The position numbers were made by a program, and so were the translations under genes. From IMG/VR virus record IMGVR_UViG_3300042341_001047: a DNA stretch of 64,000 bases, one strand, 5' to 3'. Below are positions 3,529 to 63,535 of the stretch, piece after piece. The notes under the pieces are model-generated. The model saw only the letters and a list, made by a program, of their open reading frames with translations, had not been told where the DNA came from and searched no databases. This DNA comes from a virus. Numbering within the stretch: the first letter of the stretch is position 1; every line of letters starts with the position of its first letter.

Positions 3529-3750
3529 CTATATATTAAATATAGATTTGATTCTTTCTTTTCTTATTCTAACTCTTTCATATTTAGAGTGAAGACTATG
3601 CCATTCCATTAAAGAAGCATTAATACTTGACTTACCAGTTTGTCTAGACTTCAACATAATCATATTTTTACCACTAAGTAATTGGCCAAAGACATCAAGA
3701 GTTTCTTTATTATCCATAAATTCTTTTAATTTTTTCTTTTCGTCTTTCAA
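3529..3750 (-). CDS. tagged mini-protein carrying a terminase Walker A fragment
   Basis: MIMLKSRQTGKS plus C-terminal RKERIKSIF. Confidence 0.7.
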   Translation of the reverse strand: MKDEKKKLKEFMDNKETLDVFGQLLSGKNMIMLKSRQTGKSSINASLMEWHSLHSKYERVRIRKERIKSIFNI

Positions 3751-3892
3751 TTTTATCTCTATACTTACGAGAATTAGACATTATTGTATAAATTTCTTTA
3801 CTAAATTTTTCTAAAATATTATTTTGATATTTAGATTTACTCTGATTTATCATACCAATATGATCCAATACAATAATATCTCTTTTAATCAT
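3710..3892 (-). CDS. tagged mini-protein carrying an SF4 helicase Walker B-like fragment
   Basis: DIIVLDHIGMI plus C-terminal RKEKIKRIY. Confidence 0.6.
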   Translation of the reverse strand: MIKRDIIVLDHIGMINQSKSKYQNNILEKFSKEIYTIMSNSRKYRDKIERRKEKIKRIYG

Positions 3893-4124
3893 TTAATAGT
3901 TGGTCAATCTTATTATTTCTTTTTTCCGCTTTTTCTTTAGCCAAACGGATAGCCTTTCGTTCTTCAGATTCTTCTGTTAAATTTGTTGAGTTATAATAAA
4001 CTCCAAGTTGGTCTATTAAGTCCTCATAGTTACTATATTTAGATTCAGATTTATCTAAACCATAAACCATATAATCACCATATTTAGTACCACCAAATAT
4101 GTCTTTGTAATATTCTTCTTTCAT
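3885..4124 (-). CDS. tagged hypothetical protein
   Basis: C-terminal RNNKIDQLL. Confidence 0.65.
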   Translation of the reverse strand: MKEEYYKDIFGGTKYGDYMVYGLDKSESKYSNYEDLIDQLGVYYNSTNLTEESEERKAIRLAKEKAEKRNNKIDQLLND

Positions 4125-4459
4125 TCTAATATATTTTTAATTTTCCAATCTCTTACATTTTCATAAAAATCAATAAAACTATTCATTCTATGATTCTGAA
4201 TATTTTTGAATGATTCTATTTTATTAATAATATCATCAATCAATTCTTTTTCTTCAATTAATTGAGAACCATCTGAACCAGGATATCCTAACCAGATTTT
4301 AGGCTCCTTGTTCTTCCTACCATCTAAACAAATTTCAATTTCATCACTATTTAAATGATGGTCTGATAAGTATTTAGACCATTGTGGTCCACCTAAATTA
4401 CATCTTAGAGAGATAGTTCCCCCGTCTCTATATGAGTCAAAACTTTTTATATTAAGCAT
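4121..4459 (-). CDS. tagged hypothetical protein
   Basis: C-terminal RDWKIKNIL. Confidence 0.65.
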   Translation of the reverse strand: MLNIKSFDSYRDGGTISLRCNLGGPQWSKYLSDHHLNSDEIEICLDGRKNKEPKIWLGYPGSDGSQLIEEKELIDDIINKIESFKNIQNHRMNSFIDFYENVRDWKIKNILE

Positions 4460-4460
4460 T

Positions 4461-5195
4461 TTAAATGTTTTTTAAATCATTTTTGATTTTTTCCATACCG
4501 GTTGATGCCAATTCTTGGTAATGAGTAAATAAGTGTGTTCTATATTCTGGTATATAAAAATCAACATCTGATAAATCTACATAATAAATAGAAGCACTTT
4601 CTTTGGTTAAGAATGGAATTGTGTTAGCAGGTGATACTTTCATTGAAGTTCCAACAACAATACAAACATCACATTCTTTAGCAGCAGTCGTAGCCATATC
4701 AACAAAATTTGGATCTAGATTTTCACCAAACCAAACAATATGAGGTCTTAATTGAGAACCAGTTGTTGGACATTTATCACCAATTTTAATTGGATTATAT
4801 CCTATATCAATAACGGCATCTAATGGTGATGTTTTATGATCATACATACAACCTCTAGCCTTTGTTAACTCACCATGTAAGTGAATTACATTAGTTGAAC
4901 CAGATCTTTCGTGTAAATCATCGACATTTTGAGTCACAACGGTAACATCATAGTCTTTTTCTAATTCAGCAATTATTTTATGTGCCAAATTTGGTTCAAC
5001 TTCATTCATTTGAGCACGTCTCATATTGTAGAAATTAAGAACTTTTTCTCTATCTCTACGCCACCCATCAGGGGTAGCAACATCTTCTATTCTGTGATTA
5101 TACCAAAGCCCATCGTCTCCAGTTCTGAATGTAGCAACACCACTTTCAGCTGAAACTCCCGCTCCAGTAAAAATCAATACTTTTTTCTTTTCCAT
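4461..5195 (-). CDS. cobB: Sir2/CobB NAD-dependent deacylase
   Basis: TGAGVSAESGVATFR, TQNVDDLHERSG, HLHGE, RPHIVWFGE, VGTS. Confidence 0.93.
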   Translation of the reverse strand: MEKKKVLIFTGAGVSAESGVATFRTGDDGLWYNHRIEDVATPDGWRRDREKVLNFYNMRRAQMNEVEPNLAHKIIAELEKDYDVTVVTQNVDDLHERSGSTNVIHLHGELTKARGCMYDHKTSPLDAVIDIGYNPIKIGDKCPTTGSQLRPHIVWFGENLDPNFVDMATTAAKECDVCIVVGTSMKVSPANTIPFLTKESASIYYVDLSDVDFYIPEYRTHLFTHYQELASTGMEKIKNDLKNI

Positions 5196-5250
5196 AATAT
5201 TTTACAAATTTAATTAATTAAAGTTTAATATCAAAGAAACTCTTAATAAA

Positions 5251-5259
5251 TAATATATA
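5251..5259 (+). promoter_or_regulatory. putative phage late promoter TAATATATA (representative copy)
   Basis: Same motif shortly upstream of starts at 9800, 15578, 34299, 35776, 38466, 48806, 50071, 52446, 55209, 61422, 61866 (+) and 3530, 21684, 23411, 27054, 40425, 47852, 60445 (-). Confidence 0.65.
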
Positions 5260-5281
5260 CATAAAAGAATTACAGAGTTTA

Positions 5282-8200
5282 ATGGCAAATTTTTCAGACT
5301 ATCCACTTAGGCCAAAAATACCTAATCTAGGAACATCCTCAATACCAGCTGTGGTAGCAACTACATCGATGAAATCACCGTTGGATAATTCTTTTATTAA
5401 AAATATGAGTTCTATCATATCCAAAAAACCTTTATTAATTTCAAAGGCAGATTTAATAGGTCTTGGGAAAAATAAAAAGTTAGTTGGATATAATCCTTTA
5501 CAAGACTTAGTATCAGATGCTGGTAAATCATTTAGTCCTAGAATTATAAACTGGGTTGAACCATATGAAATAAATGGTATTGATAAAAGTTTATTTTACA
5601 CTGAAGTCAATTCAGGACTTAAAGTTGGAGATAGAGTATTTATATTAAATGGAAATTATGATAGTGATAGTTTAATTATATCCAATAAATATAAAAAAGG
5701 CAGAGACGGGTATAAAGTTCTTTTTGTTGATAATTGTCAAATAGTCTTAGATATAGATTATACTGGAGTTTTACCATATTTAGAAGAATCAATAGATAAA
5801 TTTATAAAAGTTTATTACATAAAAAATGTACAAGATTTTTTACATGCTAATAGACATGCAACTACTGGATCTGCTGAATTTGATTATAAATTTAACTACT
5901 ACCAAAATAACATAGCATTTATTGACCAAGATTATACAACAACAACAAGTTGGGGTAGAAATGGTGGTATTATAGGTTCACCTGGATTCTTTGTAAAATC
6001 TGGTATAACACAAAGTTGGACAAATATTAGTAATGATTTAATTAATAGTGGATCATATTCATATGCACTTTCACCTATTTATTCAAATAATGATAGAATA
6101 AAAATAATGGAAAGTGACTTTACCTATAATGGTAAAACATTTCAAGAAGGATTTGTATATAAATGGAATGTAGGACCTACTCAATCAGAGTGGATAGTTG
6201 ATGTTAAATACTCTAAACCACTTATAACAAAGGGTAATTTTAGAGATGGTAATTTTAATGGATTTTGGAATACTGGTTTATTTGGTAGTCAAAATAAACA
6301 AATAAAGTGGGAGGGCAAAACTTCAACTTGGAAATCAGGAACTTTATTAAATACAAATTGGATAAAAGGAACATATGAGGCTTTATATACATTACCAGAG
6401 AGTTATTACTCTGGGTTAAATGATGATGGATTTCCATATCAGAAACTAAATACACCTAATAATTCAGGTAGGAGTTTTAATTTTATAATAGACTCTATTA
6501 TAGAACAATCAACAATTAATAATGGTACAATTATTAATTCAATAATAGGAACTTCATCAGCAACTTATTCAGTTGTTGAAAACTATTTGATGAATTATAC
6601 AACACCTTATCCAAATCTTATTAAGAAAGCTTATTTTGAAGATTGTAATTTTAATAATGCTTACATTTCTAATTCTGAATTAAAAAATATTAAAACAAAT
6701 AACTCAAAGTTTGAAAATGTAAAATCAGTAAACTCTTATTTTAGAAACTCTGTTTTTATCAACTCAAATTATAATAGTGATAACATTATAAAAATATTAG
6801 GATATGATGAGTTAAATGCAACTGAATATCCAAGTATAGGTTCAACATTTAGTATTGGTGGATCATATGCTTCATTAAATGATGTATCTCAAAAAGTTTA
6901 TAAATTTTATATAAACGAAAGTGGTTATAATAGATTAAAAACTGGAGATAAACTATACATAAAAGGTATAAAGTTAAATAATAGTAGTAAAGAAATACTA
7001 AATCTATTTGATAAGAAATTAAGATTAGGGTCTTGGACAGAATATATTGATGATTATAACATCTATACAAATAAATTCTTTAAAAGAGGTATTGATGTCT
7101 CTGCATTTTTATCTTCTCCTTTAGAGAATTCATATTTATTCGAAAGTGTTAGAAAACCAATCGATCCATTGAACACAACTTCACCTGATACTTATCACAC
7201 TTCAGTTTATTCTGCTAACCCAAATAGTAATCTTTATTCAATAGATATTTGGATGAGTATTTATGATATAAATGATGAAGTTTTATTACCTTCTAGTCCA
7301 GGTTTAAATGGTATGACATCACCAACACCAAATAGACCATTTTTGAAAGAATATTTAAATATAAATACTAGTTGGGAATATCCAACTAAATATGATTATA
7401 TTTCAGCAACTGGATCAGGCCCAGTAAAATTAGGAAACATAGTAGATGTGACAAACGCATATATCGTTGATGCTGATTTTGAAAGTGGTATTTTTGAAAA
7501 CTCAAATTGGAATAGTGGATATCATATAAATTCTCAAACTGACTTAAATATAACAGATTCGTCAGCAACTTCATCATTAAATGATGGAGTTTATAACTTA
7601 TCATTTACTTCAAGTAATAGTTTATTAGCAACTTCTTTATATAATCAATTTCATCAAGAAACTGAATATCCTTTATTTGTAGGAGAGGTTGTATTTTTAG
7701 ATGGTGTTGATTTTAATGATGGTACAACCATTACAAGATTACCAGATGCTTACAAAGTAGTTTCAAATAATTTATTAGGAGTTTATAAATTAGAAGAGTT
7801 AGTAACAGGTACAGTTAGTATCATATCATCATTAACTCAATCAACAGGAACTTTCTCTACAACTAATGCGGGTAATAGATATGGTTATATTAAATCACTT
7901 AAATTCAATAAATCAAAAATAAAATCTGGTATCTTTAGAAGACCTTATATCACAAACTCTATAATTGAGAACGATTCTTATGATTCTTTGGATAAAGATT
8001 TTAGTGATATACCAAAACTTAGAAACTTAGTAGTAACAGACTCTTTATTTACAAATAAGTCAAATAGATTATCATCAGCTACTTATCTTTATTCATCGTT
8101 TTTATCTGGTAGTGATAGTTGGAATAATGGTATAATACAAAACTCTATATGGGTTAATGGTACTTTCTCAAGTGGTGTTATAAAAGAATCATCTTGGTTA

Positions 8201-12800: not shown

Positions 12801-13154
12801 AATTTTAGTGGGTACGTTGGATATACTGTTCAATCAACTTTTAATTATGTAATAGATAACATTAAATTTATAGAGATTGATATGATTCCCTTTTTCCAGT
12901 ATTTCGTTGAATCAAATATTAATAAAGGTATACAAATTCCTTTTCAAGGAATATCACCTTATATAGATTATAGTAATCCATTCTTTAATTTCTTAGATAA
13001 TATATCACTTGGTGTTAGCAGTATTGCTGTATCAAATTCAAATGTTGCAGTTAGTGGAGTAGGTGTTGGTGTTTCAACAAATAATCCACCAGCAAATAAT
13101 CCAGCAGGTGGATTATTTGAGACCGGAATAGGAACTGAGGGTCGAGGTGATTAG
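9816..13154 (+). CDS. large probable virion structural protein
   Basis: 1112 aa; GVWENGVWNSGW and GYFRGVWNYG repeats shared with the neighbouring gene. Confidence 0.6.
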   Translation: MSWNTSVSGISSADWRLTTIGTGGPTPIRMRVNSQVSPSKLTTLTYVSSTNYQFKSGKTYQFVTDVYYYMNNLNPNSASFSISTPIETVSNFQWDESLDYNKFKGTSPSILGTGTSVGRFPGITNSNFYFYATPPSDISTKNIIEYNANNKFGTASNTETISAGITNFNLSEMDYRIQGFAFYKWGDAPYSRAGTSSTFTGAYPQNGLGWTYDANYNSGELLHWYDDSQVNLNPVGGGRTTKIGSVGYRQNNYIAKFVPYTYFNFSFNYQNQHGDFPLEIYLSSTLPTNNPGSFSKPTNALLIGTLTQSISVIAGVTYSSRSYSIPHKFFSLEGGRYIYFKGPFVGTQSSATYSSIFITDIVVEGGYHPGNNEQYQTSNVTSIIPYGLIGATYSTYVGNGNTINATQSLSISQINANIGNGTFKSGVWENGVWNSGWRYDDSVQEFSKIYQYFTYNKSKRWRIQIEGPSDAVNSFEIGDKVSIGNIIAIDINENRKTIKGYFTIIAKTDFTIIVEFDNDFPLRRIEKDSDNHRIYVTKNVWLSGAFFNGYFRGVWNYGLFRGYPMITEMYDTHWVDGIFDGGHFNTSYYTVPKFVDTLFYPNETFGGRVGLTFSSKHGLAVGDTILVDKDNKNINPQYDGETTIDNVINDYHIVTALPWGNDSTSEGGTVSVTLSKGVVQKMQFKSKNRSKITSNQSLESTSVFIYDSWMDVNYYNTSAVNIGKPQSLVNTLSGKDYSENNLYGYPTNDVLESSSTFRDSFSTTIREYSLGTKYKIFNNYIGDAGNFQEQFGSTRDYNPIGTPTESVERNSSDSKFINLGWTYSRYNASSLTFSRTFDLGEEGVIGQELLVRAIGRGGILDIYPLTDDEIIANRTNDTIKKLRYTAIEFDLVSHSELLEDGGTFIESSVPTLPILTKKSLFPTGSQGGYPIPMLHFNNINTTLRNIYYSTLGAGGGTVSTIIPASYLPISSNVNHLSTSKKRKIEYFYNKKNLSMNFSGYVGYTVQSTFNYVIDNIKFIEIDMIPFFQYFVESNINKGIQIPFQGISPYIDYSNPFFNFLDNISLGVSSIAVSNSNVAVSGVGVGVSTNNPPANNPAGGLFETGIGTEGRGD

Positions 13155-13864: not shown

Positions 13865-14066
13865 AGAATCCTATATTTTTTAATTTCTCTTTCATTTCAG
13901 ATTTGTTTTTTGTTAAACCAACAATATCACAAACTTGTTTTGAAATACCACCAGATTCTATTATAAGAGCATCCGGTTTTGTTACATAGTTAATTAGATA
14001 ATCCAATCCTTGTTTAGCGGCAGATTCTAAGTTTTCTAATTTGATATATCTTTTATTAAAGCTCAT
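13851..14066 (-). CDS. hypothetical protein
   Basis: 71 aa ORF in a coupled minus-strand operon. Confidence 0.6.
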   Translation of the reverse strand: MSFNKRYIKLENLESAAKQGLDYLINYVTKPDALIIESGGISKQVCDIVGLTKNKSEMKEKLKNIGFYEFK

Positions 14067-14256
14067 TTTTATTCAGTATTTGTTCAATTTTATAGTCTCT
14101 ATTTTTTCTAAAGTTTATAATAGAGAATGATTCTTCAGATCTAAATCCACAATGTTTACAAATATAAACGAGTGGTTTTGGAATGTATCCATAATTAGAA
14201 ACAGGTTCTGAAAGACTTGTTTTAATATCAGTAGATTCACATTCTGGACAATTCAT
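14056..14256 (-). CDS. tagged Zn-ribbon protein
   Basis: CPEC...CKHC; RDYKIEQIL. Confidence 0.7.
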   Translation of the reverse strand: MNCPECESTDIKTSLSEPVSNYGYIPKPLVYICKHCGFRSEESFSIINFRKNRDYKIEQILNKNEL

Positions 14257-14546
14257 ATATCTAATATCTGATTAATTTTTTTTTCTCTTAAAATTGCTTT
14301 ATTTGTTCTTTCAAATTCACCTCTTTCATCTTTATAACCACAATCATTACAAATACTTTGTGATGGAATAGTCGGTTTAGAACCATCGGTTGGTATAAAA
14401 AACTTCCATTTAATATTCTTACTTTTACAATTCGGACAACCTGATAAATCTTCTAAAGTTCCTATAAATCCTGACTTTTGTAATTTTCCTAAATCATATG
14501 TTTTATTACTTTGATTAGGAAACAAACTAAGTAATTTTTTAATCAT
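14253..14546 (-). CDS. tagged Zn-ribbon protein
   Basis: CPNC...CNDC; REKKINQIL. Confidence 0.7.
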   Translation of the reverse strand: MIKKLLSLFPNQSNKTYDLGKLQKSGFIGTLEDLSGCPNCKSKNIKWKFFIPTDGSKPTIPSQSICNDCGYKDERGEFERTNKAILREKKINQILDI

Positions 14547-15612: not shown

Positions 15613-17145
15613 ATGTTAAAAAGATACTTTGATTTTGTAAATGAATCTCTAAACTTAATACTAGAGTCCGATGTTGTTTATTCTAGTAAACTTAGAAATG
15701 TATTATCTAAAATAGATAGTGAAATCTCTAGAAAACTTATTGAGATAGAAAATAGAGACCTTCCAGTTAGAAGTAACTATTTTGATATCATTTCAGATAA
15801 AAATGATATGGTTTCATTTATACCAGATAGAAAAGCTCAAGAAATACTTAAAGATGTTAAAGAATTCTGGAGATTCAATGGATCTGGCGGAGGTTGGTTA
15901 AAACACTCAGAATCAAATGCTGAATTGTTTTCTAAATTAGGATATGTTCCAGAAGGAAATCCTTATTCACCAAACTCAAGAGATATTGGTGAAATAGTTG
16001 CAGAAACTACTTCAGAAACATCTGGTAACACATATTGCTGGGTTAAATTCATGAATGGTACTGGAGAATATATTGGACAAGGAGTTTATAATAAAGAAAA
16101 ACTTATAAAAGCAGAAGGAATTAAAGAGAAAGAAGTTTGGACTAAAAGTAGACAAGAAATCGGTGTAGGTAGAGGAATTAGAGCTTTATTATTAACAACT
16201 GGTGAAAAGTTTTTAGATAAAGATATTGAACAATTTGTTAATATTTATAAAGCAACAATTGATAAATTAAACGATAAGTTTAGTTTTTTTGAAGTTGTTA
16301 GTGGAACAGATATTCATTATTGGTATAATTATGATAATTATTACCAAAGAAGTGGATCATTAGGAAGTTCTTGTATGGCAAGTGCAAGAGCAAGTTGGTT
16401 AGAAATATACACTGCTAATCCAGAACAATGTTCAATGGTTATATTCAAATCACCAGATGATATTAATAAAATAGTTGGAAGAGCTATCTTATGGACTTTA
16501 ACAGATGGTAAAAAGTTCATGGATAGAATCTATACTATAAATGATTCAGATGTTCAGTTGTTTAGAGAATACGCTAAAGAAAATGGATGGTATGCAAAAT
16601 ATCATAATAGTAGTACATCAAATTCCGATGCTTACGCACCAGATGGTACAAAAACAAACTTGAATTTAAGGGTTAATCTTTCTCAGAAAGACTACGACTA
16701 TTTTCCTTATTTAGATACTTTAAAATATTTTACACCAGGAAGTGGAATATTAAATAACACTGATGGTGAATATGCACTCGAAGATACTGGAGGTGGTCAT
16801 TCATCTTGTGATTGTTGTGGTGGAAGTGGTAGAACTGAATGTGGTGATTGTGATGGAAGAGGAGTAGAAGACTGTAGTAATTGCGATGGAAGTGGAAAAG
16901 AAGAATGCTCAGAATGTGATGGTAATGGGAAAAACACTTGTAATAATTGTGATGGTTCAGGAAAAGTAGAAGATGATGAAGGAAATGAGATTGATTGTGA
17001 TGAGTGTGATGGAGATGGTGAATTAGAATGTGATGATTGTAATGGAAGAGGTAAAGTAGATTGTGATGAGTGTGATGGAGATGGTGAACACGATTGTAAT
17101 AGTTGTGGTGGAGATGGTGAAGTTGATTGTTACGAATGTAACTAA
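15613..17145 (+). CDS. head-leader protein with SCM/RAILW/MDRIY domain and C-terminal CxxCxGxG array
   Basis: Paralog of 33339..34292; nine CxxCxGxG repeats plus terminal CxxC. Confidence 0.7.
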   Translation: MLKRYFDFVNESLNLILESDVVYSSKLRNVLSKIDSEISRKLIEIENRDLPVRSNYFDIISDKNDMVSFIPDRKAQEILKDVKEFWRFNGSGGGWLKHSESNAELFSKLGYVPEGNPYSPNSRDIGEIVAETTSETSGNTYCWVKFMNGTGEYIGQGVYNKEKLIKAEGIKEKEVWTKSRQEIGVGRGIRALLLTTGEKFLDKDIEQFVNIYKATIDKLNDKFSFFEVVSGTDIHYWYNYDNYYQRSGSLGSSCMASARASWLEIYTANPEQCSMVIFKSPDDINKIVGRAILWTLTDGKKFMDRIYTINDSDVQLFREYAKENGWYAKYHNSSTSNSDAYAPDGTKTNLNLRVNLSQKDYDYFPYLDTLKYFTPGSGILNNTDGEYALEDTGGGHSSCDCCGGSGRTECGDCDGRGVEDCSNCDGSGKEECSECDGNGKNTCNNCDGSGKVEDDEGNEIDCDECDGDGELECDDCNGRGKVDCDECDGDGEHDCNSCGGDGEVDCYECN

Positions 17146-17555
17146 TCTATAACTTGATTAATTTTCTTATCTCTTATAAATGATCTATATATCTGGAAAT
17201 ATTCAGATTTCTCAGATGCTATTGTTTCTTCAAAATTACTATAATTTAGTTCAATTTCAATTGAAAGTGGTATAAAATTACCATACCAATCAAAACAATC
17301 ATTTTGTATTTTTACAATAGTGGATGAATTAAATATACTAAGAACCTTAAATTGATCAAAAATTATAATTGTTCTTTTATCAAAAACATCAATAGGATCA
17401 TTGGTATACTTATTCATCCATTCTTTGAAAAATCGGATAGAATTTTCACAATTTGTAGTAACCTTTATATAAGACCTACCTGTTTCAGATACCATATTAA
17501 CTTTAGATATCTCACCTATAACATTTAATCCATTTTTGTCATCTATTAAAATCAT
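17142..17555 (-). CDS. tagged protein, possible degenerate tail-tube-like fragment
   Basis: FFKEWMN...KRTIII...FDW...SIEIELNY; RDKKINQVI. Confidence 0.55.
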   Translation of the reverse strand: MILIDDKNGLNVIGEISKVNMVSETGRSYIKVTTNCENSIRFFKEWMNKYTNDPIDVFDKRTIIIFDQFKVLSIFNSSTIVKIQNDCFDWYGNFIPLSIEIELNYSNFEETIASEKSEYFQIYRSFIRDKKINQVID

Positions 17556-19988: not shown

Positions 19989-20267
19989 TTAGATTTTTTC
20001 TCCTAAAATAAATTCTATCTTTTTGAATCTATCATCAGTATCAGTGAAGATAATGAATACCCTATCGATATCTTTAAATTCTTTTGATTCGCCAGTAAAT
20101 TCATTAACCATTACATCTTTTTTGTAAACAACATCAATTCCAGGTTCTTCACCTAAAAATCTACGCATATCTTCTTTAATCTGTGATAGTTTCCAGTCAT
20201 CATTTTTAAAATCAATCTTAGAGATGTAGTCTCTAATCGCCATTTCTTTCATTGAGCTCATATTCAA
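19989..20267 (-). CDS. hypothetical protein
   Basis: 92 aa ORF. Confidence 0.6.
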   Translation of the reverse strand: MNMSSMKEMAIRDYISKIDFKNDDWKLSQIKEDMRRFLGEEPGIDVVYKKDVMVNEFTGESKEFKDIDRVFIIFTDTDDRFKKIEFILGEKI

Positions 20268-20661: not shown

Positions 20662-20907
20662 TCACCAGATTTGTGGGAAGTTAGTTGGTCCTTTTGGAGT
20701 AGAAGTTATAATAACATTAGGAACATCTATTCCAAATATTTTACCTATTTTTATTTTTCTTAAATATCTTTTAGAATATTCAACACCTGATGTATCTTTT
20801 TCAATGAAGTGAATACCTGGTCTCACATATCTACCTATTCTGTTCATTTGATTTCTTCTTTTTACTTCTTCTTGTTTTCTTGTGAGTTTTAGATGATTCA
20901 GCTCCAT
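20662..20907 (-). CDS. tagged mini-protein carrying a terminase coupling-motif fragment
   Basis: RKIKIGKIFG followed by VIITSTPKGPTNFPQIW. Confidence 0.65.
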   Translation of the reverse strand: MELNHLKLTRKQEEVKRRNQMNRIGRYVRPGIHFIEKDTSGVEYSKRYLRKIKIGKIFGIDVPNVIITSTPKGPTNFPQIW

Positions 20908-21328
20908 ATTTATAATCTAAATAGAATAAAGTACCTGATGGAGCAGACATTGGAGTTACTCCTTTTTTCATCAACTCTTTATATTCTTCATCATCTTCTA
21001 ACTTCTTTTCAGTAAATTCACCACCTTCAATAACAGCTTCAATTTTACCATCACGATTTTCAGAATTTACTCTACTTTTTACATCATCAATTTCTTCTTT
21101 TGATGCGAATCCTATTATTTCATTGGACATTAATTTTGATGATACTTTCATAGCCATTGGTAGTAAACTTGGAAACTCTTCAGTTTTAGTTTCTTCTAAT
21201 ATTTGATTTGATTGATTTTCGGCTAACTGAGCTAAATTGTCTAATTGAGATCCAGTCATACCCATAGACCCTAAGATAGGAGCCCATTTTTTCATTAATT
21301 CTTCTTTATTTGGTTGTTTCATAAACAA
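20831..21328 (-). CDS. tagged fragment of T4-type major capsid protein (N-terminal part)
   Basis: LMKKWAPIL, AENQ, LLPMAMKV, GVTPMSAPSGTLFYLDYKYG; internal RDGKIEAVI. Confidence 0.7.
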   Translation of the reverse strand: MFMKQPNKEELMKKWAPILGSMGMTGSQLDNLAQLAENQSNQILEETKTEEFPSLLPMAMKVSSKLMSNEIIGFASKEEIDDVKSRVNSENRDGKIEAVIEGGEFTEKKLEDDEEYKELMKKGVTPMSAPSGTLFYLDYKYGAESSKTHKKTRRSKKKKSNEQNR

Positions 21329-21679: not shown

Positions 21680-21694
21680 AGTGTATATATTAAT

Positions 21695-22444: not shown

Positions 22445-22446
22445 AA

Positions 22447-41970: not shown

Positions 41971-42366
41971 TTATTTTCTAGATTCCAAAATATCACCAAT
42001 AGTTGTTTTAGAATAACCTATCATTTTTTCAACCCCTAAGATATGATTAATTCTTTTTTGTCTTAAAACATCTTTTGGATAAACAGAGTTTAAATCAATC
42101 AACCGACCAGTTGAATAAGTATGCTTAGTTACTCTGATACCTCTTTTACTCACATACTCAACATATTTTGGTTGAAATTCTTCTGGTAGGTATTCATAAC
42201 CAACACATTCATATCCATTACAATAATATCTACCACAATCACAATTCCAATAATAGTAATCATCATCGTAATCATCATCCCAATAACCCCAATAGTAATC
42301 ACTACCAAGTTCAGCCTTGGTTATTATCTTATCAAGAATTTCTGTTCTATTTTTTCTCAGTGCCAT
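41971..42366 (-). CDS. tagged hypothetical protein with D/Y/W-rich segment
   Basis: RQKRINHIL near the C-terminus. Confidence 0.6.
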   Translation of the reverse strand: MALRKNRTEILDKIITKAELGSDYYWGYWDDDYDDDYYYWNCDCGRYYCNGYECVGYEYLPEEFQPKYVEYVSKRGIRVTKHTYSTGRLIDLNSVYPKDVLRQKRINHILGVEKMIGYSKTTIGDILESRK

Positions 42367-42754
42367 TTATTAATTCGCTTAATCTCCAATCCCTGATGTT
42401 GATTTTGAAATCATCAAAAGAATGAGAATTTGACATTATATCTATTCTTGTATTTATTTCTTTTATTAAGTCACTTATTTCCATATCTCTATTTCTACAT
42501 TGACCATCATAAACACATTCAATACTTGTTTTATTAGAAGCTAATATCCACATAGTAATATTTGAGTAAATATCAAACATTCGTTTTACTTGTGCTAAAT
42601 ACTCTTCAGCAGATTGTCTAGACTTACCAGATACATCAACATGAACGGTAAAGATAGGATTATTTAAATTTAGTTCAATTTTTTCTGGAGCAACACCATA
42701 TGAGTGAGTAAATGGATTGTTATTTATAGCATTTTGAAGATTTTGAAAAGACAT
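42347..42754 (-). CDS. tagged mini-protein carrying a portal-like fragment
   Basis: APE...IFTVHVDVSGKSRQSAEEYLAQVK; RDWRLSELI. Confidence 0.6.
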   Translation of the reverse strand: MSFQNLQNAINNNPFTHSYGVAPEKIELNLNNPIFTVHVDVSGKSRQSAEEYLAQVKRMFDIYSNITMWILASNKTSIECVYDGQCRNRDMEISDLIKEINTRIDIMSNSHSFDDFKINIRDWRLSELINGTEKK

Positions 42755-44173: not shown

Positions 44174-44794
44174 TTATTTATTAAAAGTTTTTTCATAAAC
44201 ATTCCTAATGGCTTTTATACCATTTGGTTGAATCTCTCTTGTTCCTATACCCGCAAAATTTTGAGAAGTTATAGAAGGAACATCTTTCATTTCAACAAAT
44301 TGAAGAGTTGAGTAAGACCATCTAAACCACTTATCTCTAACTTGATCAAATACAAATACTTCTTTTTTATTATTTATACCCATCATTACTGCATATCCGG
44401 TACCACCATCGACAATATCAAATTCACCTTTATTGTAATATCCTTTTGAATTTTTGTGACCAGATTTAATAATTGTGCTAATTGCAAATATTTGATCCGA
44501 GTATTTCACTTGAGACCAATTACGAGCTAGCAAATTCATATACTTATGAATTCCATATCTATTTAGAAACTTATTTGCTTTATTAACTTCAATAACACCT
44601 TCATTATAATCATCATCTGAAATTTCAACTTTATTAGGTGATGTGTGTTTAGGTGTTTTATGAGAGTAGGCTCTGGTAGTAACATCATAGGTAACTCCTT
44701 CGTTTTCCCAGACGGTATCCGCTCCGACTGCACCACCAGAATGACAAACTACTTTTGTCAAGTCAATGGGTTTTTTATCAAAAATATCAATCAT
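44174..44794 (-). CDS. SLOG-superfamily protein
   Basis: HSGGAVGAD, VDGGTGYAV, FAGIGTR. Confidence 0.7.
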   Translation of the reverse strand: MIDIFDKKPIDLTKVVCHSGGAVGADTVWENEGVTYDVTTRAYSHKTPKHTSPNKVEISDDDYNEGVIEVNKANKFLNRYGIHKYMNLLARNWSQVKYSDQIFAISTIIKSGHKNSKGYYNKGEFDIVDGGTGYAVMMGINNKKEVFVFDQVRDKWFRWSYSTLQFVEMKDVPSITSQNFAGIGTREIQPNGIKAIRNVYEKTFNK

Positions 44795-45041
44795 TTAGTA
44801 TTTTGTTTATTAAAAATTCTCTCTTTATCGATAAATCCTTTTCAAAAAATAGATTTATCGAATTTTCTCCACTAAAAGAGCTATAGATATTCAATTTATA
44901 TTTACAATCTTGATAATGTTTATCTAAGTATTTAATTATTAAATATCTAGCATCATCTATATTGGTTACTTTATCACTATACGGAACATCAAAACTCTCC
45001 ACTAAGTTTTTATTAGTTTCTAAATAAATATTTATCATCAT
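44787..45041 (-). CDS. tagged hypothetical protein
   Basis: C-terminal KREFLINKIL. Confidence 0.6.
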   Translation of the reverse strand: MMINIYLETNKNLVESFDVPYSDKVTNIDDARYLIIKYLDKHYQDCKYKLNIYSSFSGENSINLFFEKDLSIKREFLINKILND

Positions 45042-45905: not shown

Positions 45906-46235
45906 TTAGTTTAATACCTGTTTTATTTTTTCGTCTCTTTGATAAGCTTTATAATCTTCTCCTTCCGTGATAAAATATTCTGACATTTCTTGTTCAGTAA
46001 AATAATACCACTTTATTCTCTCACTATATGGTAAATTCCACCAATCTTTTCTACCAGAATGATATCCATGTTGATCATCTTCAACACAAAAACCATATCC
46101 TTTTCTACCATTAACTTCTGGATCAGCATTAAATTCTAAATTACCTCTTCCTTTGATATCATAATGACTACCAACTTTAATAGTTTTGTATTCTTTGACA
46201 CAAACAACTCTTTGACAATCCCATCTATCTTCCAT
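45906..46235 (-). CDS. tagged hypothetical protein
   Basis: C-terminal RDEKIKQVL. Confidence 0.65.
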   Translation of the reverse strand: MEDRWDCQRVVCVKEYKTIKVGSHYDIKGRGNLEFNADPEVNGRKGYGFCVEDDQHGYHSGRKDWWNLPYSERIKWYYFTEQEMSEYFITEGEDYKAYQRDEKIKQVLN

Positions 46236-46392
46236 CGAATAGTTTTTTAATTTTATATTTTCTAGCTTTTATAACATTAACTCTACATCTTAACTTGGAT
46301 AACTCTGAGTAAACATCAGTTACATTCATAGCACCGTAGCTCGAGTTCAAAATCATCTTGTAATAAGCTAATTTACTTTCTAATTCTCTCAT
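46225..46392 (-). CDS. unlisted 55-aa tagged mini-protein carrying the family B DNA polymerase motif
   Basis: Manual translation MRELESKLAYYKMILNSSYGAMNVTDVYSELSKLRCRVNVIKARKYKIKKLFDGR; overlaps both neighbours (ATGA coupling upstream). Confidence 0.75.
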   Translation of the reverse strand: MRELESKLAYYKMILNSSYGAMNVTDVYSELSKLRCRVNVIKARKYKIKKLFDGR

Positions 46393-50587: not shown

Positions 50588-50596
50588 AAAATAAAA

Positions 50597-51028: not shown

Positions 51029-51041
51029 ATAAATAAAAACT

Positions 51042-54252: not shown

Positions 54253-54707
54253 GTTGACGTATAAATAGTTCTGTATATAGAAATACACCAATAAATAATA
54301 TTTAAACCACCATAGACTAAATATAAACTTAAATTCATTCCAAAAAGCTTAAATACTATATCTAAAATGATAAAAAAACAAACAGATATTAAAAAATACC
54401 TATTTAGTTTATCAAATTTTTGAGTGACTACAAATTTTTGAAATTTATACTTTATAATTAAGTAAGGATGTTGTAATAAAGATATTTTTCTATCTCTACT
54501 ACAAGGTATGCAGATTTTTGAATAATCCTCTGATTTCATCAATCTTTCGAAAGTTTCTTTTTCAGATAAGTTCAAATCATCTTTGCAATTATAGCATATT
54601 TTACCTTTTTTTATCTCCCAACTTAATGAGTTTCTTTTTTTCAAAATTAAAATTTGAAAAAAAACAAAAAATATGGGTAAAAAACAATATATGATTGAAA
54701 ACATCAT
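54231..54707 (-). CDS. membrane protein with CxxC pair and internal tag
   Basis: CYNC...CIPC-S-RDRKISLL; three hydrophobic segments. Confidence 0.6.
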   Translation of the reverse strand: MMFSIIYCFLPIFFVFFQILILKKRNSLSWEIKKGKICYNCKDDLNLSEKETFERLMKSEDYSKICIPCSRDRKISLLQHPYLIIKYKFQKFVVTQKFDKLNRYFLISVCFFIILDIVFKLFGMNLSLYLVYGGLNIIYWCISIYRTIYTSTKKPSEN

Positions 54708-55156
54708 CCTAAAATTAATTTTAAAAAATTATCTCTCTTATCCATCTTAGATAAAGACTTAACACACTCTGGCCCTAAACCATTTAAGATACTAGAAGGT
54801 ACAGTAAGTGTTCTACCACATTTACCACATTTACCCTCGTGCCAAGCTTCAATGAAGTCAGGTAGAGTATTTGTTTTTAGTTTATTAAGAACATACTCAA
54901 ATACTTTAACGGATTGAGCATCTTTAGAAATTGCTGATTTTTTACCATGTCTATAGATACCTTCAATACAAGTACCAATATAGGAATATGTTTCAGGACC
55001 CGTCAAAACACTAATAAAAAACATATTAGAGTCTTTGGCTTGTTTTACTTTGAATGTAAAACGATTTCCTGTTTTTGAGTTAAGTAATGTAACAAGTGAT
55101 TTACCTGCAAAGATAAATTTAAGTGCTTCTGAGTTATTTAATTTATGTCCTTCCAT
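54704..55156 (-). CDS. tagged protein with C-terminal Zn finger (CGKCGRTLTVPSSI..GLGPEC)
   Basis: Common phage domain plus KRDNFLKLIL. Confidence 0.7.
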   Translation of the reverse strand: MEGHKLNNSEALKFIFAGKSLVTLLNSKTGNRFTFKVKQAKDSNMFFISVLTGPETYSYIGTCIEGIYRHGKKSAISKDAQSVKVFEYVLNKLKTNTLPDFIEAWHEGKCGKCGRTLTVPSSILNGLGPECVKSLSKMDKRDNFLKLILG

Positions 55157-56376: not shown

Positions 56377-56379
56377 AAT

Positions 56380-58371: not shown

Positions 58372-58379
58372 TTTAGTTA

Positions 58380-60137
58380 TTATTTTATTCTTGTATGAAA
58401 GCTATGGCCCTCATTAATTCTTTCTAATTCTTTTAGATAAATTTCTTTACCTTCTTTCATATATTGAGCTAACATTTGAACTTTTTTATAGTCACCCTCA
58501 TCTAAAGCAGCATCAATTAACTCTTGTAATTCTCTTGGAGTTAAATCAGCATAATCTACTTCACCTTCAGTTTCTTCAGATCCACCATATAAACTTTGTT
58601 TAACTAATTTATCAATGTCAGATTCTTCTTCTTCTTTACCTGGCTCCATAGTACCATCTTCTTCCTCTTCTTGACGATATTTTTCTTCTTCCTGACGATA
58701 TTTTTCTTCTTCTTGTCTTTCCTTTTCTTCTTGTTCCCATTCAGCAATTTCTCTATTATAGTCTTCGATATCTTCAACGATATAGTCAACTATCTTTTTG
58801 ATTTCTGTTTTAGCTAAAGATGAATTGAATTTTTGTTCATTAATAACAAATTCAATTTTACCACCTCTTTCAACACTATCAAATACAGAGAACATACTTT
58901 TCATAATATCTAAGAATTGTTTATCAGTTCTAGCAATATCTGCTTTCTTTTTCAAAAATTGTTTATGTTCTTCAGGAGCATTTTTAACTTCTTCTTGAGC
59001 TCTTTCTTTATCAACAGCTAACATTGTAAATACTCTTGTTTCTAATCTTTTATAATCATTAGATTCAGAAAATTTATTAACAAAAGTTAATAACATTTGT
59101 AAAGCTGGTGGTCCATATCTAAAGTCTTGAGCTTCATCCATAAAAGATGAAGTAGCTTTTTTAACTATTTCTGCAGTTTTCTTATCTTTCTTGATAGCAC
59201 CAGATTGTAAGAAAAGGAATATACCTTTAATTGTCTCGTGAATCAACATTGGAAAATCAACACCAGCAGATTTAATAACTATTTTAGTAGCTTCTTTTTC
59301 TAAAAGAAGATTCATATTATAAAAGTTACCTGACAAACTTTCCCATTTAACTTGAACAGCTCCAGCCATACCACCTGGTTGATTTCTCATCATACTAGCT
59401 TTTCTATCAATTGGAATAACCCAGTCCATTTTATCAGCGATATCTGACATTTGAACCCATAAGTTTAATATTGTTCTATAACCATCACCGAAAATTTGTT
59501 GTAAACCTTCATCAACAATATCAGAAGCTCTAATAATATCTTTTGTAGATTTACCAGCGGCTTGAGTAATCATATTAAGAATCTTTTTCTTTTCAACCGC
59601 ATCAACTAAATCAGTTCCAGGAACTTCTTCTTGTTCTTCATCTGATCCAGACTCTTGATTTTCATCTTGGTCCTCATCTTGGTCCTCTTGGTCTCTCTCA
59701 TCTTGCTCTTCTTGGTCTTGTTCAGTAGGCTGTTTAGCTTGTTGAGGAACTTCATTAATATCTCCAATTTCTCTATTAACAGAACCCATCGGTACTAATT
59801 TAATATCTAATTCAATTGGCTTAATAGATGAATCTAAAATTTCACCGAATTGATCTCTTACTACTTTCTCAGCTAACTTTTCTAATTTAGCAATTCTTTC
59901 TTGTACTTCTTGTTGTGATAATCTTTGTCCATTAGGACCTGTTGATAAAATTTGTTGAGATTGTCTCATAGCACCTTCAAAAGATGGCCAAAGATTTCTC
60001 ATTTGAGACTCATCATCAGGTCTGATACCTAAATTTCTTGCAGCTTCTTCATCAGATTTACGCATGAAATCAGTAGGGACTCCCTTATTTCCTCTCAAAT
60101 CAACTTCTTCTTTTATAAATTTTTCAAAATTTTTCAT
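58380..60137 (-). CDS. head-leader protein with acidic repeats and IDEAL-like C-terminal helix
   Basis: MKNFEKFIKEE; FPMLIHETIKG; EEEKYRQ repeats; LIDAALDEGDY. Confidence 0.6.
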   Translation of the reverse strand: MKNFEKFIKEEVDLRGNKGVPTDFMRKSDEEAARNLGIRPDDESQMRNLWPSFEGAMRQSQQILSTGPNGQRLSQQEVQERIAKLEKLAEKVVRDQFGEILDSSIKPIELDIKLVPMGSVNREIGDINEVPQQAKQPTEQDQEEQDERDQEDQDEDQDENQESGSDEEQEEVPGTDLVDAVEKKKILNMITQAAGKSTKDIIRASDIVDEGLQQIFGDGYRTILNLWVQMSDIADKMDWVIPIDRKASMMRNQPGGMAGAVQVKWESLSGNFYNMNLLLEKEATKIVIKSAGVDFPMLIHETIKGIFLFLQSGAIKKDKKTAEIVKKATSSFMDEAQDFRYGPPALQMLLTFVNKFSESNDYKRLETRVFTMLAVDKERAQEEVKNAPEEHKQFLKKKADIARTDKQFLDIMKSMFSVFDSVERGGKIEFVINEQKFNSSLAKTEIKKIVDYIVEDIEDYNREIAEWEQEEKERQEEEKYRQEEEKYRQEEEEDGTMEPGKEEEESDIDKLVKQSLYGGSEETEGEVDYADLTPRELQELIDAALDEGDYKKVQMLAQYMKEGKEIYLKELERINEGHSFHTRIK

Positions 60138-60145
60138 AGTTAAAA

Positions 60146-60418
60146 TTATTTTTGTTCGAAATAGGAGTCTATTTCTTTTTTATCTTCTTTTGAAGCATCT
60201 GAATAAACAGAACTAAGTCTATCAATTACTTTTTCAGCTGACGCTAAAGGAGCATCTTGTTCAGATGGAACTTCAGTTGGTGTTATACCTGGTCTACTTG
60301 GTCTCGGTCTCGTTGGAGTAGGAGTTGTAGTCGGTGCTGGAGTTGTAGTCGGTGCTGGATTTGCACCCATTACCAATTCCTCACTAACAAAACTCTCAAA
60401 CTTTTTGATAATTCTCAT
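60146..60418 (-). CDS. small head-leader protein with Pro/Thr repeats
   Basis: MRIIKKFESFVSEE; PAPTTTPAPTTTPTP. Confidence 0.6.
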   Translation of the reverse strand: MRIIKKFESFVSEELVMGANPAPTTTPAPTTTPTPTRPRPSRPGITPTEVPSEQDAPLASAEKVIDRLSSVYSDASKEDKKEIDSYFEQK

Positions 60419-60956: not shown

Positions 60957-60957
60957 T

Positions 60958-61389
60958 ATGAAAAAAGCGTATGTTATTTTAAAAAAAGGATTTGAGTATG
61001 ATGATAACATCTACAATGAATCAGATGGTGGTACACCAAATCTAATTGTATTTTCTAAAGAAGATGCTCAATTAAAAGTAAATGAATTAAATATTCAAGA
61101 ATTAAAAAATTGTTCAATATCAGAATACTCATATGATATGGAAGATATTCTTAATGTAGAAATTGATGAATATGATAAATTCAACGAATCTCTAAATACC
61201 AAGTATGGTAAACCAGAATCTAAAAATAGATGGGATTCATTTGAGAATAAACTACATCCAATGGCTAATGAAGAAGAAGCTAATCAATATGTTAAAATGG
61301 TTTCTATTAGTTTTTACGAGGCTGTTGAAACGGATATTGATGTTCAATCTCTTAGAGAAAAACAAGTTTCTAGTATTTTAGACAAGTAA
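60958..61389 (+). CDS. tagged hypothetical protein
   Basis: C-terminal REKQVSSIL. Confidence 0.6.
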   Translation: MKKAYVILKKGFEYDDNIYNESDGGTPNLIVFSKEDAQLKVNELNIQELKNCSISEYSYDMEDILNVEIDEYDKFNESLNTKYGKPESKNRWDSFENKLHPMANEEEANQYVKMVSISFYEAVETDIDVQSLREKQVSSILDK

Positions 61390-61868: not shown

Positions 61869-61897
61869 TATATACTACATAAAAATAAAATATTAAA

Positions 61898-62464
61898 ATG
61901 AAAAGATTTTCAGATATTAAAAAAGTAAAAGTTAAAAAAATCAACGAAGCCGAAGGTGAATCAAATTTACCTTCAAACTACGAAGATATGTCAAAAGAAG
62001 AACTTTTAGCTCTTATGTCAGGTAAAAAAGAACAACCTGAACCAGAAAAGAAAGAAGAAGAAAAGAAAGAAGTATCTAACGAAGGTGGTGATGTTTCTAA
62101 ATTCATCTCTAAATTGTTAGAAAGTAGAGAGATGGCTCAAGTTTATCACTGGACGGTTAAAGGTGATATGGGTTCACACGCAGCTCACTTAGCATTAGAA
62201 GCTTACTACAGTGGTGTTATTGAATTTATTGATGATATCGTTGAGGTTTATCAAGGTCAATATGGTTTAATTGAAGGATATGATCAAATTGCTACAGATG
62301 AAACAAGATCTAAAGATAAATTGGATTACTTCAAAGAAGTTGTTGAATTTGTTAAATCAGAAAGAAGTTGCATTAAAGTAGAAGATACACACTTACATAC
62401 TATAATAGATGAGGTTGTAGTTCTTATTTACAAAACAATCTACAAATTAACTTACAATAAATAA
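61898..62464 (+). CDS. ferritin/Dps-like four-helix protein with leader
   Basis: YHWTVKG..GSHAAHLALEAYY...DDIVEVYQGQYG...IIDE...YKL. Confidence 0.7.
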   Translation: MKRFSDIKKVKVKKINEAEGESNLPSNYEDMSKEELLALMSGKKEQPEPEKKEEEKKEVSNEGGDVSKFISKLLESREMAQVYHWTVKGDMGSHAAHLALEAYYSGVIEFIDDIVEVYQGQYGLIEGYDQIATDETRSKDKLDYFKEVVEFVKSERSCIKVEDTHLHTIIDEVVVLIYKTIYKLTYNK

Positions 62465-62465
62465 A

Positions 62466-63014
62466 ATGAAACACATTAAAAAACATCCTATTAATGATAA
62501 AGCTCAGAAGCTTTCAAAGGATATAAAAAAACAAGATCATAGTAAACCAGCATCAAAAAAGAAATTAGACGCTGATAAATCTTTAAGTGATCCTGAGGTT
62601 TCAATGAAGGTAACTAAACCATCAAATAAAAAATTAAATGGTGAAAAGTTTTTATCTAACCCTACAATCAATACTAAAAAGCCTAATAAACCTTCTAATA
62701 AAAATTTAGATGGTGAGAAGTTCTTAGCAGAAGGACTTAATCATTTAAAAAGATTCAATGAAGAATTCGATTCAAGTGGATATCAATCACACTGGACTAA
62801 ATTTGCTCAATGGTTATGGGAAAAAGACTTTGAATTATATGGTGGTGGAGAAGACCTTCACAATAAATTTATGGAAGTATCTAATGATGATAACTTATCA
62901 TCAGAAGATAAAGCTAGTCAAATTACAAATTATTTAGATGAAAAATGGGGAGTCTATGATGGATATATGTCAGTATATAATTATTTAGAATCTTTATTCA
63001 TGGATGAAATTTAA
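62466..63014 (+). CDS. basic repeat protein with internal leader motif
   Basis: KP(A/S)(S/N)KxLxx(D/E)KxL repeats, then HLKRFNEE. Confidence 0.6.
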   Translation: MKHIKKHPINDKAQKLSKDIKKQDHSKPASKKKLDADKSLSDPEVSMKVTKPSNKKLNGEKFLSNPTINTKKPNKPSNKNLDGEKFLAEGLNHLKRFNEEFDSSGYQSHWTKFAQWLWEKDFELYGGGEDLHNKFMEVSNDDNLSSEDKASQITNYLDEKWGVYDGYMSVYNYLESLFMDEI

Positions 63015-63016
63015 CT

Positions 63017-63045
63017 AAAATCCCACTTAATAAGTGGGATTTTTT
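63017..63045. terminator. bidirectional intrinsic terminator
   Basis: aaaatcccactta-a-taagtgggattttt. Confidence 0.8.
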
Positions 63046-63284
63046 ATTTCTATAGTTCCGTAAAAGTTATTATTTATAATCTTTTTAGAGTATCTACTCA
63101 TAATTGATTTACTTGGTGAGAATTCATCTTTAACATCTAAACCTAAACCAAATATCTTATTAATCTTTCTTTTTCTACTTACATTCTTAGAAGTATATCC
63201 AGATATAACAGAAGTGGTTGTCAATGGAATATAAGGAGCAAAAACATAACCTTGTTCTAAATTACTTTTCTTTCCTATTATCAT
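63027..63284 (-). CDS. tagged fragment of T4-type major capsid protein (C-terminal part)
   Basis: GYVFAPYIPL...[RKRKINKIFG]...FSPSKSIMSRYSK...FYGTI. Confidence 0.72.
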   Translation of the reverse strand: MIIGKKSNLEQGYVFAPYIPLTTTSVISGYTSKNVSRKRKINKIFGLGLDVKDEFSPSKSIMSRYSKKIINNNFYGTIEIKNPTY

Positions 63285-63420
63285 TGAATATTTTTTTAAT
63301 TTTTTCTTTTCTTTTATCTTTTCTAAGAAAAGAACTTAAAAAGTTCATAGAAGAATAGTCATGTAATCTACTTCCAGGTCCACCTAGTACAACATTCCAC
63401 TCATCTCTCGCTTTTATCAT
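63262..63420 (-). CDS. unlisted 52-aa tagged mini-protein
   Basis: MIKARDEWNVVLGGPGSRLHDYSSMNFLSSFLRKDKRKEKIKKIFNDNRKEK. Confidence 0.6.
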   Translation of the reverse strand: MIKARDEWNVVLGGPGSRLHDYSSMNFLSSFLRKDKRKEKIKKIFNDNRKEK

Positions 63421-63535
63421 ATAATCTTTTGATTTTATTTTTTCTCTTTTCAGATCTTTCTTTTTTAGACCATCTGAAAATTGAATCTGTTATAGACTCT
63501 TGAAACTCTTTTGATTGATTTTCCCAAATTGACAT
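63401..63535 (-). CDS. unlisted 44-aa tagged mini-protein
   Basis: MSIWENQSKEFQESITDSIFRWSKKERSEKRKNKIKRLYDKSER. Confidence 0.6.
   Translation of the reverse strand: MSIWENQSKEFQESITDSIFRWSKKERSEKRKNKIKRLYDKSER

Follow-up and report, generated by a model that had tools for sequence, protein, structure and literature searches.

Tagged genes in the window

A 64,000-nucleotide stretch of the virus record IMGVR_UViG_3300042341_001047 (the window), part of a 175,660-base virus contig with 29% G+C, was analysed for mostly small open reading frames (ORFs) that share a helix-like tag with the consensus R-x-x-K-[IL]-x-x-[IL]-[LF]. Tags were divided by the residue after Arg into an Asp class (Asp, Glu or Asn) and a Lys class (Lys or Arg). 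By position-specific score, 18 ORFs in the window were tagged, including a borderline one at 19989, with about three weaker ones besides; a first-pass annotation of the sequence had counted about 22, and all ten tags that it quoted were found in the ORFs named. It had also proposed a library of mini-proteins in which the tag is joined to a signature fragment (bait) of a phage core protein. Such a bait library is real, yet it is a minority of the tagged set: the proposal held for a short, Lys/Arg-rich subclass and failed for most tagged proteins. The tagged ORFs of the window with a likeness to a core protein were as follows (lengths in amino acids, aa; all identities are predictions).

3529..3717 (-), terminase bait, 62 aa (73 aa from an upstream TTG): Walker A strand-loop-helix and Lys-class tag at 3538-3564
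3710..3892 (-), helicase bait, 60 aa: Walker B strand of a DnaB-like helicase and Lys-class tag at 3716-3742
17142..17555 (-), tube-like tagged protein, 137 aa: predicted tail-tube/Hcp-like fold and short beta-hairpin, tag at 17148-17174
20662..20907 (-), chimeric bait, 81 aa: tail-sheath N-terminal arm, internal Lys-class tag at 20734-20760 and terminase-like IITSTPxG
20831..21322 (-), capsid bait, 163 aa: capsid N-terminus and Gol-equivalent region, split by an insert with the tag at 21029-21055
42347..42754 (-), possible portal-clip protein, 135 aa: tag at 42368-42394
46225..46392 (-), PolB bait, 55 aa: motif B helix of family B polymerase (K-x3-N-S-x-Y-G) and Lys-class tag at 46237-46263
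63027..63284 (-), capsid bait, 85 aa: C-terminal capsid strands of the canonical T4 type, internal Lys-class tag at 63150-63176

Nature and distribution of the tag

Across the contig, the pattern R-x-x-[KR]-[ILV]-x-x-[ILV]-hydrophobic was found within the last 20 residues of 18 ORFs, compared with a mean of 0.26 and a maximum of 3 when the last 25 residues were permuted 1,000 times; the tag thus stands well above shuffled Lys/Ile-rich C-termini. The strict pattern occurred 17 times in frame and once out of frame. Its Arg and Lys codons track genome usage, with an A/T leaning of the Ile/Leu codons at +7/+8, and tag strength was similar with and without an overlapping downstream start (score 21.2 vs 20.2). 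The start of the next gene lies in two frames and at varying distances from the tag. Because the codons follow genome usage and strength is independent of the downstream start, the tag is a protein motif and not a DNA site; the frame test, codon usage and this independence rule out a DNA-level element or translation-start artefact. That the tagged set as a whole consists of composition look-alikes, in-frame start signals or pseudogene debris is very improbable: the genome is low in G+C and Lys/Ile-rich and 62% of tagged genes overlap the next start, but shuffles, frame test, codon usage, synteny across at least five genomes and the ratio of non-synonymous to synonymous substitution rates (dN/dS, see below) all oppose it.

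The first-pass annotation had suggested scanning relatives, and there the tag proved to be genome-wide, with about 130 of the 1,000 genes in each complete relative tagged. Two complete relatives carry 111 and 97 C-terminal copies (shuffles about 2.5) and, by score, 137 and 126 tagged genes of about 1,000 (~13%). In LR745206, 120 of the 137 tags lie within the last 20 residues. Copies near N-termini and within proteins occur too, for example in a conserved 555-aa helicase and in a second helicase of LR745206, both full-length, so the tag needs no free end. An Arg-Lys variant occurs in LR756504, on 52 of the 733 genes sampled there; in LR756501, LR756511, LR756508, Lak-A2, immuto and Mel-JY01 the tag is at or near chance level. 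Most tagged proteins match no known family, and no anti-defence family was among the top matches of 109 tagged proteins against Pfam/PHROG, libraries that hold few inhibitors.

The Arg, the Lys and the spacing are nearly fixed, the commoner class is acidic at +1 and +5, and the tag falls in a helix of the predicted structure. It would be a portable amphipathic helix read by one common partner, able to work at the C-terminus, at the N-terminus or within a loop, and would mark about 130 non-virion accessory proteins for one place or partner. Alternatively, it might target membranes by itself as an amphipathic helix with no protein reader, which would be compatible with any role of the baits. This we consider unlikely. 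The predicted helix would suit it, and Lys-class tags are basic with a Phe end, as are the targeting helices of MinD and FtsA; the acidic +1/+5 residues of the commoner class and the near-fixed Arg, Lys and spacing, however, suggest a protein pocket, and a transmembrane helix is already present in about 8% of the tagged proteins, a share similar to that of untagged proteins.

Core-protein fragments in one tag class

The two classes differ in size: the Asp class has a median of 113 aa (n=286) and mostly ends in Leu, the Lys class a median of 55 aa (n=34) and usually ends in Phe or Tyr. Proteins were stripped of the tag and searched against the long proteins of two unrelated T4-like phages (E < 0.01, orthologues counted repeatedly). 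Foreign core proteins were matched by 14/55 of the Lys class (reversed 0/55) and by 0/165 of the short Asp class, while 12 of 1,131 untagged proteins matched (reversed 10). The contrast was also seen with own-family profiles (15/54 vs 2 reversed). A motif-panel test gave 13/33 Lys-class families against 1/121 and 6/882; as the panel had been built from the baits themselves, this test is circular in part, and the long-protein search is its unbiased version.

The catalogue of baits comprises capsid, prohead protease, sheath, tube, portal, terminase, polymerase, helicase and ribonucleotide reductase. At 44-163 aa, compared with parents of 442-1306 aa, the baits cannot do the parent's job, as had been noted at first pass, and full-length parent genes are intact in the contig or relatives. 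Beyond the window, the same contig has full-length genes for capsid, portal, terminase, prohead protease, sheath, tube and DnaB-like helicase. Two genes far apart encode the family B polymerase (L002:3319-4845; LR745206 130568-131992), the break falling between the two fingers helices; the half with motif B was seen in relatives only.

Individual baits were assigned with family profiles, without the tag, against 525 long proteins and reversed controls. For 3529, the four best proteins were all large terminases (best E 0.01; phrog_2 E 0.017), RQTG[KR]S is kept with synonymous changes, and dN/dS is 0.26. The two best for 3710 were the family's DnaB-like helicases (E 0.006, reversed control 1.2). 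The 46225 profile reached only E about 1; across 26 orthologues nothing but the motif B helix and the tag is invariant, and in distant clusters the motif is kept in 35/49 and the tag in 35 (dN/dS 0.27). The sequences thus support terminase Walker A, helicase Walker B and PolB motif B as the likely identities. The second helix of 46225 (DVY, then Lys/Arg at periodic positions) is similar to the other of the two fingers helices, which closes the N-terminal half of the polymerase; by eye, 46225 may be a circularly permuted fingers hairpin.

ORF 20662 had been taken for a terminase motif at first pass. Its IITSTPxG, otherwise present in large terminases only, bears this out, but the body is mainly a sheath N-terminus that had been missed: the four best profile matches were sheaths (E 1e-6), the sheath alignment by itself spans the whole body, and IITSTPxG overlaps the sheath motif KGPxNxP. 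A sheath N-terminus is strongly supported, and 20662 is best read as a sheath/terminase chimera because of the otherwise terminase-only motif.

Both capsid assignments are likewise strongly supported by sequence comparison. ORF 20831 (11 orthologues) matched PF07068 (E 9e-4) and phrog_138 (E 1e-5), and its family profile matched the own-type capsid N-terminus at E 3e-11 to 2e-9, with a last strand of the canonical type (E 1e-4). The region in 20831 and in a bait of LR756504 that we take to be equivalent to Gol was assigned from T4 gp23. With 63027, tblastn returned 13 records, and 11/11 annotated matches were capsid genes of other phages; the profile gave E 2e-10 with a foreign capsid against 0.04 with the own capsid (dN/dS 0.22). 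The baits are not full T4-type major capsid proteins (PF07068) with a complete HK97 fold: the scores of 19.2 and 19.7 bits lie below the cut-off of 24.4, and only fragments are present.

Capsid, PolB, terminase and helicase thus hold among the core proteins first named, with tube and portal less certain. A tail-tube fold in 17142 has moderate support from modelling. Most of the top 50 structural matches of its AlphaFold2 model were tail tubes, Hcp and related tail proteins, the best with a Z-score of 6.7 and a root mean square deviation of 3.6 over 104 residues, for a low-confidence model with a predicted local distance difference test (pLDDT) score of 55; profile searches gave no sequence match and an atlas search was blank. 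The portal-clip identity of 42347 (323 homologues, dN/dS 0.24) is weak. Its pairwise profile comparison with the own portal gave p 4e-4 over 19 columns and was not top in an open search, portals came up for its beta-alpha-beta-beta model only at E 0.1-0.3, and a structure search with the model returned generic helical pairs only. Clearer portal baits occur in relatives.

Larger tagged proteins contain whole folds, namely capsid C-terminal halves (E 2e-16, 8e-8), a protease-like protein and the predicted tube-like fold. Outside the window, the following were assigned.

L003:1492-1704, mid-capsid bait
L003:8734-9480, capsid C-terminal half
L002:18200-18973, capsid C-terminal half
L004:8784-8951, protease-derived protein
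L004:2501-2947, protease-derived protein
L002:8945-9460, degenerate P-loop protein (weak match)
L002:16393-16923, degenerate P-loop protein (weak match)

Two capsid C-halves and a protease-like copy lie near head genes.

Selection and turnover

Bait gene order is kept in four related contigs. Against close relatives, pooled dN/dS was 0.27 for five baits (p 4e-12), 0.38 for other tagged genes and 0.13 for untagged neighbours; against distant relatives it was mostly 0.2-0.7 and near 1 for 3710 (0.30 with a close relative), the mid-capsid bait and one 20662 pair. Motif codons vary synonymously. The baits are under purifying selection, so that the neutral evolution named at first pass as a refutation was not seen, and pseudogene decay is rejected by this selection and by conservation among relatives.

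The gene that follows 20831 differs among genomes: in this contig it is the sheath-terminase bait, in LR756502 it is a sheath bait, and LR745206 has a portal bait there. Three independent chimeras join signature motifs of two different proteins: sheath with terminase (20662), ribonucleotide reductase with PolB motif A (LR745206) and capsid with protease (LR756504).

Such turnover could mean that the tag is the working part and that gene fragments are merely foldable carriers or starts, with motifs persisting as stabilisers of small folds. The tag sits on about 130 unrelated bodies and persists at a locus whose bait switches from genome to genome, untagged neighbours are under stronger selection than the baits, and two Lys-class ORFs of the window have no recognisable parent. 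We nevertheless regard this explanation as doubtful: motif B keeps its Asn, Ser, Tyr, Gly and Lys, and Walker A its loop, although their role is catalytic and not fold-stabilising, core fragments are restricted to one tag subclass, and chimeras combine two signature motifs.

Origin of the capsid baits

The capsids of the own family, LR756501, LR756504 and Lak form one derived sequence type. The identity of ORF 63027 and of the mid-capsid bait is 29-38% to canonical T4-like capsids (including that of Flavobacterium phage immuto) and 18-24% to the derived type. In trees they fell on the canonical side (100/100 and 99/99), and an approximately unbiased (AU) test rejected joining them to the own capsid clade (p 0.0003-0.0008, from 59 and 39 columns and only four canonical capsids). 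Recent duplication from the own capsid gene is thereby rejected and, with so few columns, this is as far as a safe statement goes. The simplest origin would be that both were captured from a co-infecting T4-like phage; the two may instead have been retained from before the split with the Lak phages, which the AU test does not separate from capture. The first-pass description of decoys of the phage's own triggers accordingly fits several own-type baits and not these two, which are nearer other T4-like phages (AU p<0.001). The baits with Walker A and motif B, too, seem nearer the canonical form than do the enzymes that the family itself encodes; motif B of 46225 has the canonical Asn-Ser where the relatives' own polymerase has Asn-Gly.

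Foreign-type baits would be expected of weapons against competitors: capsid strands, sheath arm, portal clip and tube monomer would intrude as dominant negatives when a co-infecting T4-like phage folds or assembles its proteins, and the tag would drag the captured protein to a sink. The canonical affinity of 63027, the mid-capsid bait and the Walker A and motif B baits speaks for this role, and the sheath arm and capsid strands are assembly contacts. Own-type baits (20831, the two capsid C-halves, protease, scaffold repeats, sheath) would, however, poison the phage itself, and Walker A, Walker B and motif B serve catalysis and form no assembly surface. On balance we hold the role possible, though somewhat doubtful.

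Candidate partners of the tag

The hydrophobic spacing 4-7-8 of the tag fits a clamp-binding (PIP-like) motif; no sliding clamp was found with three Pfam models, despite a clamp loader in the family. The phage family encodes a proteostasis set of ClpC without its N-terminal domain, ClpP, ClpS, DnaK, DnaJ, rhomboid and stand-alone UVR-motif proteins (L090:7443-9572 (G004) and relatives; window 13151-13864 and 17552-17842; L004:16901-17182). ClpC, ClpP, ClpS, DnaK and DnaJ are candidate readers, but ClpC does not track the tag: it is present in tagged and tag-less phages alike, and ClpC, UVR and DUF6576 genes showed no co-distribution with the tag across genomes. When the tag helix (42347 residues 88-135) was modelled in complex with phage ClpC, the score was 0.00, which is evidence neither way. 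In LR756502, ClpC-middle-domain-like UVR coiled-coil motifs are fused to the tag at 320919 and 381760 (L130, L133).

Baits might also serve the phage's own programme as adaptors or regulators, occupying the factors that handle their parents (EF-Tu, chaperones, phage ClpC/ClpP) and thereby timing assembly and replication. Beyond the encoded Clp and DnaK/DnaJ proteins, this would account for the capsid C-halves and protease-like copy near head genes, and there are precedents in the binding of EF-Tu by the Gol region (PMC3014915) and in phage ClpC adaptors (Gp53, PMC6873191). It is an unlikely explanation, as ClpC also occurs in tag-less relatives, foreign-type baits have no own substrate, and a plain degradation signal would not be expected on full-length helicases, which carry the tag too.

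DUF6576 (PF20216, a three-helix domain) resembles the tag in its first helix only, so the tag is not a full DUF6576 domain, and one DUF6576 protein among those inspected was tagged. The domain is appended to 3-6 proteins per genome, also in L004 and L005 genes of the own contig. In a 67-aa ORF (G004 445982-446185, L098) the first helix of DUF6576 is a perfect tag; an origin of the tag from this helix is possible on sequence likeness.

Many unrelated genes begin with a leader, M-K-x-I-K-x-F-x-x-F...N-E, like the T4 capsid-targeting sequence (in the window for example 3163-3525, 21368-23406, 47064-47828, 50084-51665 and 56380-60418; 62-78 per complete relative). Leader genes that were also tagged numbered 0, 0, 0 and 1, compared with 8.6, 9.7, 5.7 and 2.8 expected; because the two almost never occur together, leader and tag mark different gene sets.

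Proposed function

The tagged subclass would be a set of selected mimics of the most conserved parts of core proteins, drawn from the own lineage and from other T4-like phages. The reading that we prefer, at a probability of about 0.35, is that this mimic library blocks host anti-phage sensors and is held by the shared docking helix. The block would be competitive: a partial ligand would occupy a host sensor without activating it, and the tag would hold or concentrate the complex. We infer a common reader, early expression, sensor binding, and inhibition rather than activation. A binding partner is suggested because catalytic and assembly motifs are selected in proteins too small to use them, and host sensors would be the best candidate because they cover own-type and foreign-type baits, and enzyme and structural motifs, together. 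The baits resemble defence triggers in sequence or fold. Their catalogue overlaps the capsid, portal, terminase, tube, polymerase and RecA-fold helicase that are core-protein triggers of Avs/STAND sensors (PMC13581612) and the prohead protease, also a defence trigger (PMC13728456); short capsid motifs are read by Lit and CapRel.

Several points weigh against this reading. More than 85% of tagged proteins have no core match, and since fragments are recognisable only with conserved motifs the catalogue is biased. Avs sensors recognise an entire fold over a wide interface and are activated even by core domains that are catalytically dead or trimmed (PMC13581612), so that folded baits could trigger and not block, while 50-residue peptides may not bind; larger folded baits would fit such wrapping sensors better than peptides of 45-85 residues. 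Foreign-type baits would fit a role against competitors at least as well, and that role comes close in probability to the blocking of sensors. More tentatively than the latter, the set may be a renewable peptide library in which conserved own and rival motifs on a common docking helix neutralise host sensors or rival phages in bulk.

It is an open question how phages evade sensors directed at essential proteins that can hardly mutate; the known inhibitors are single proteins. If sensors are indeed blocked as proposed, a library of tagged trigger fragments would be a general answer, would predict unseen sensors (of sheath, ribonucleotide reductase and scaffold) and would read out which phage motifs host immunity watches. 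Should the decoy idea prove wrong, one motif carried by an eighth of the genes in a 640-kb genome would still point to an undescribed sorting or docking hub. Baits of 50 residues are easily synthesised and tested.

Relation to known systems

The T4 capsid-targeting sequence of internal proteins is a short, cleaved N-terminal address on many unrelated proteins. The tag is likewise a short peptide address common to many unrelated proteins, but it is not of this type (N-terminal with a Glu cleavage site), being mostly C-terminal and exclusive of the leader that this phage has separately. Satellite or prophage assembly inhibitors and eukaryotic microProteins are likewise small proteins or fragments of one domain, and disturb a larger homologue or the assembly of a rival; unlike the baits, they have no shared tag, multi-protein library or motif chimeras.

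DSAD1 of phage SPbeta is a trigger mimic that inhibits the DSR2 sensor (PMC10973363). Like it, 17142 with its predicted tube-like fold would be a small phage protein that mimics the tail tube and could occupy a sensor. DSAD1 is, however, one dedicated protein with shown binding, whereas here there are dozens of gene fragments that share a tag and are known from sequence. The Gol peptide of T4 gp23, a 29-residue capsid motif, activates Lit and binds EF-Tu (PMC3014915). The corresponding, most conserved capsid segment is carried by 20831 and the LR756504 bait; Gol lies within the capsid protein and activates defence, whereas this is a free mini-protein interrupted by a tag insert. Avs/STAND sensors have a target list that overlaps the bait list, but they act on the host side and read folds, not motifs, and no fragment-based inhibitor is described in PMC13581612. 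SPO1 Gp53, an adaptor-like protein of ClpC (PMC6873191), offers a model of how the tag might bring cargo to a Clp protease; it has no sequence link to the tag, for which ClpC docking is hypothetical. A published description of the tag or library was not found in a full-text literature search, with most subscription papers outside its coverage, and the gene architecture appears undescribed so far.

Other tagged genes and genomic context

The remaining tagged or tag-like ORFs of the window were as follows.

3885..4124 (-), tagged protein, 79 aa, no core match: tag at 3894-3920
4121..4459 (-), tagged protein, 112 aa, no core match: tag at 4127-4153, dN/dS 0.28
14056..14256 (-), tagged protein, 66 aa, two CxxC pairs: tag at 14074-14100
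14253..14546 (-), tagged protein, 97 aa, two CxxC pairs: tag at 14262-14288
19989..20261 (-), borderline-tag protein, 90 aa: score 13.1, 0/10 orthologues pass the threshold
41971..42366 (-), tagged protein, 131 aa, no core match: tag at 42037-42063
44787..45041 (-), variant-tag protein, 84 aa: tag at 44796-44822
45906..46235 (-), tagged protein, 109 aa, no core match: tag at 45912-45938
54704..55156 (-), sub-threshold tag-like end, 150 aa: score 9.4
60958..61389 (+), sub-threshold tag-like end, 143 aa: score 7.7
63262..63420 (-), Lys-class protein, 52 aa, no recognisable parent: tag at 63286-63312, dN/dS 0.26
63401..63535 (-), Lys-class protein, 44 aa, no recognisable parent: tag at 63419-63445

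The tag of 19989 is probably due to chance. A sirtuin gene (4461-5195) heads the run of four tagged ORFs at 3529-4459, in an order kept in relatives; a promoter scan of 3000-5400 was close to shuffle level (24 vs 17 +/- 5). In LR756504, about eight paralogous tagged genes of 136-145 aa form a tandem array (L206:5076-10309). A conserved 191-aa tagged protein (G004 L086:13890-14462) resembles a dead DnaB/RecA-fold domain, and its LR745206 orthologue matched a helicase profile at E 6e-4.

By its sequence, the source virus is a T4-like megaphage and a relative of LR745206 (635 kb) and LR756502 (642 kb), to whose capsids its own capsid protein is 73-80% identical. Five genomes of >634 kb were placed in the Mahaphage clade, with predicted Bacteroidetes hosts, by Al-Shayeb et al. 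(PMC7162821). Such a host is consistent with a ribosomal protein S21 gene in the window (14539-14730; PF01165, E 3e-10), with A-rich gene starts without a Shine-Dalgarno signal, and with DUF6576 domains, which are present in the contig and its relatives and, among 14 control genomes, in Bacteroides only. The S21 gene lies directly upstream of the two tagged genes with Cys motifs. Elsewhere in the contig (L001, upstream of the 483-aa gene at about 73,450-74,900), there is a Ro60/TROVE-like gene preceded by a gap of 600 bases.

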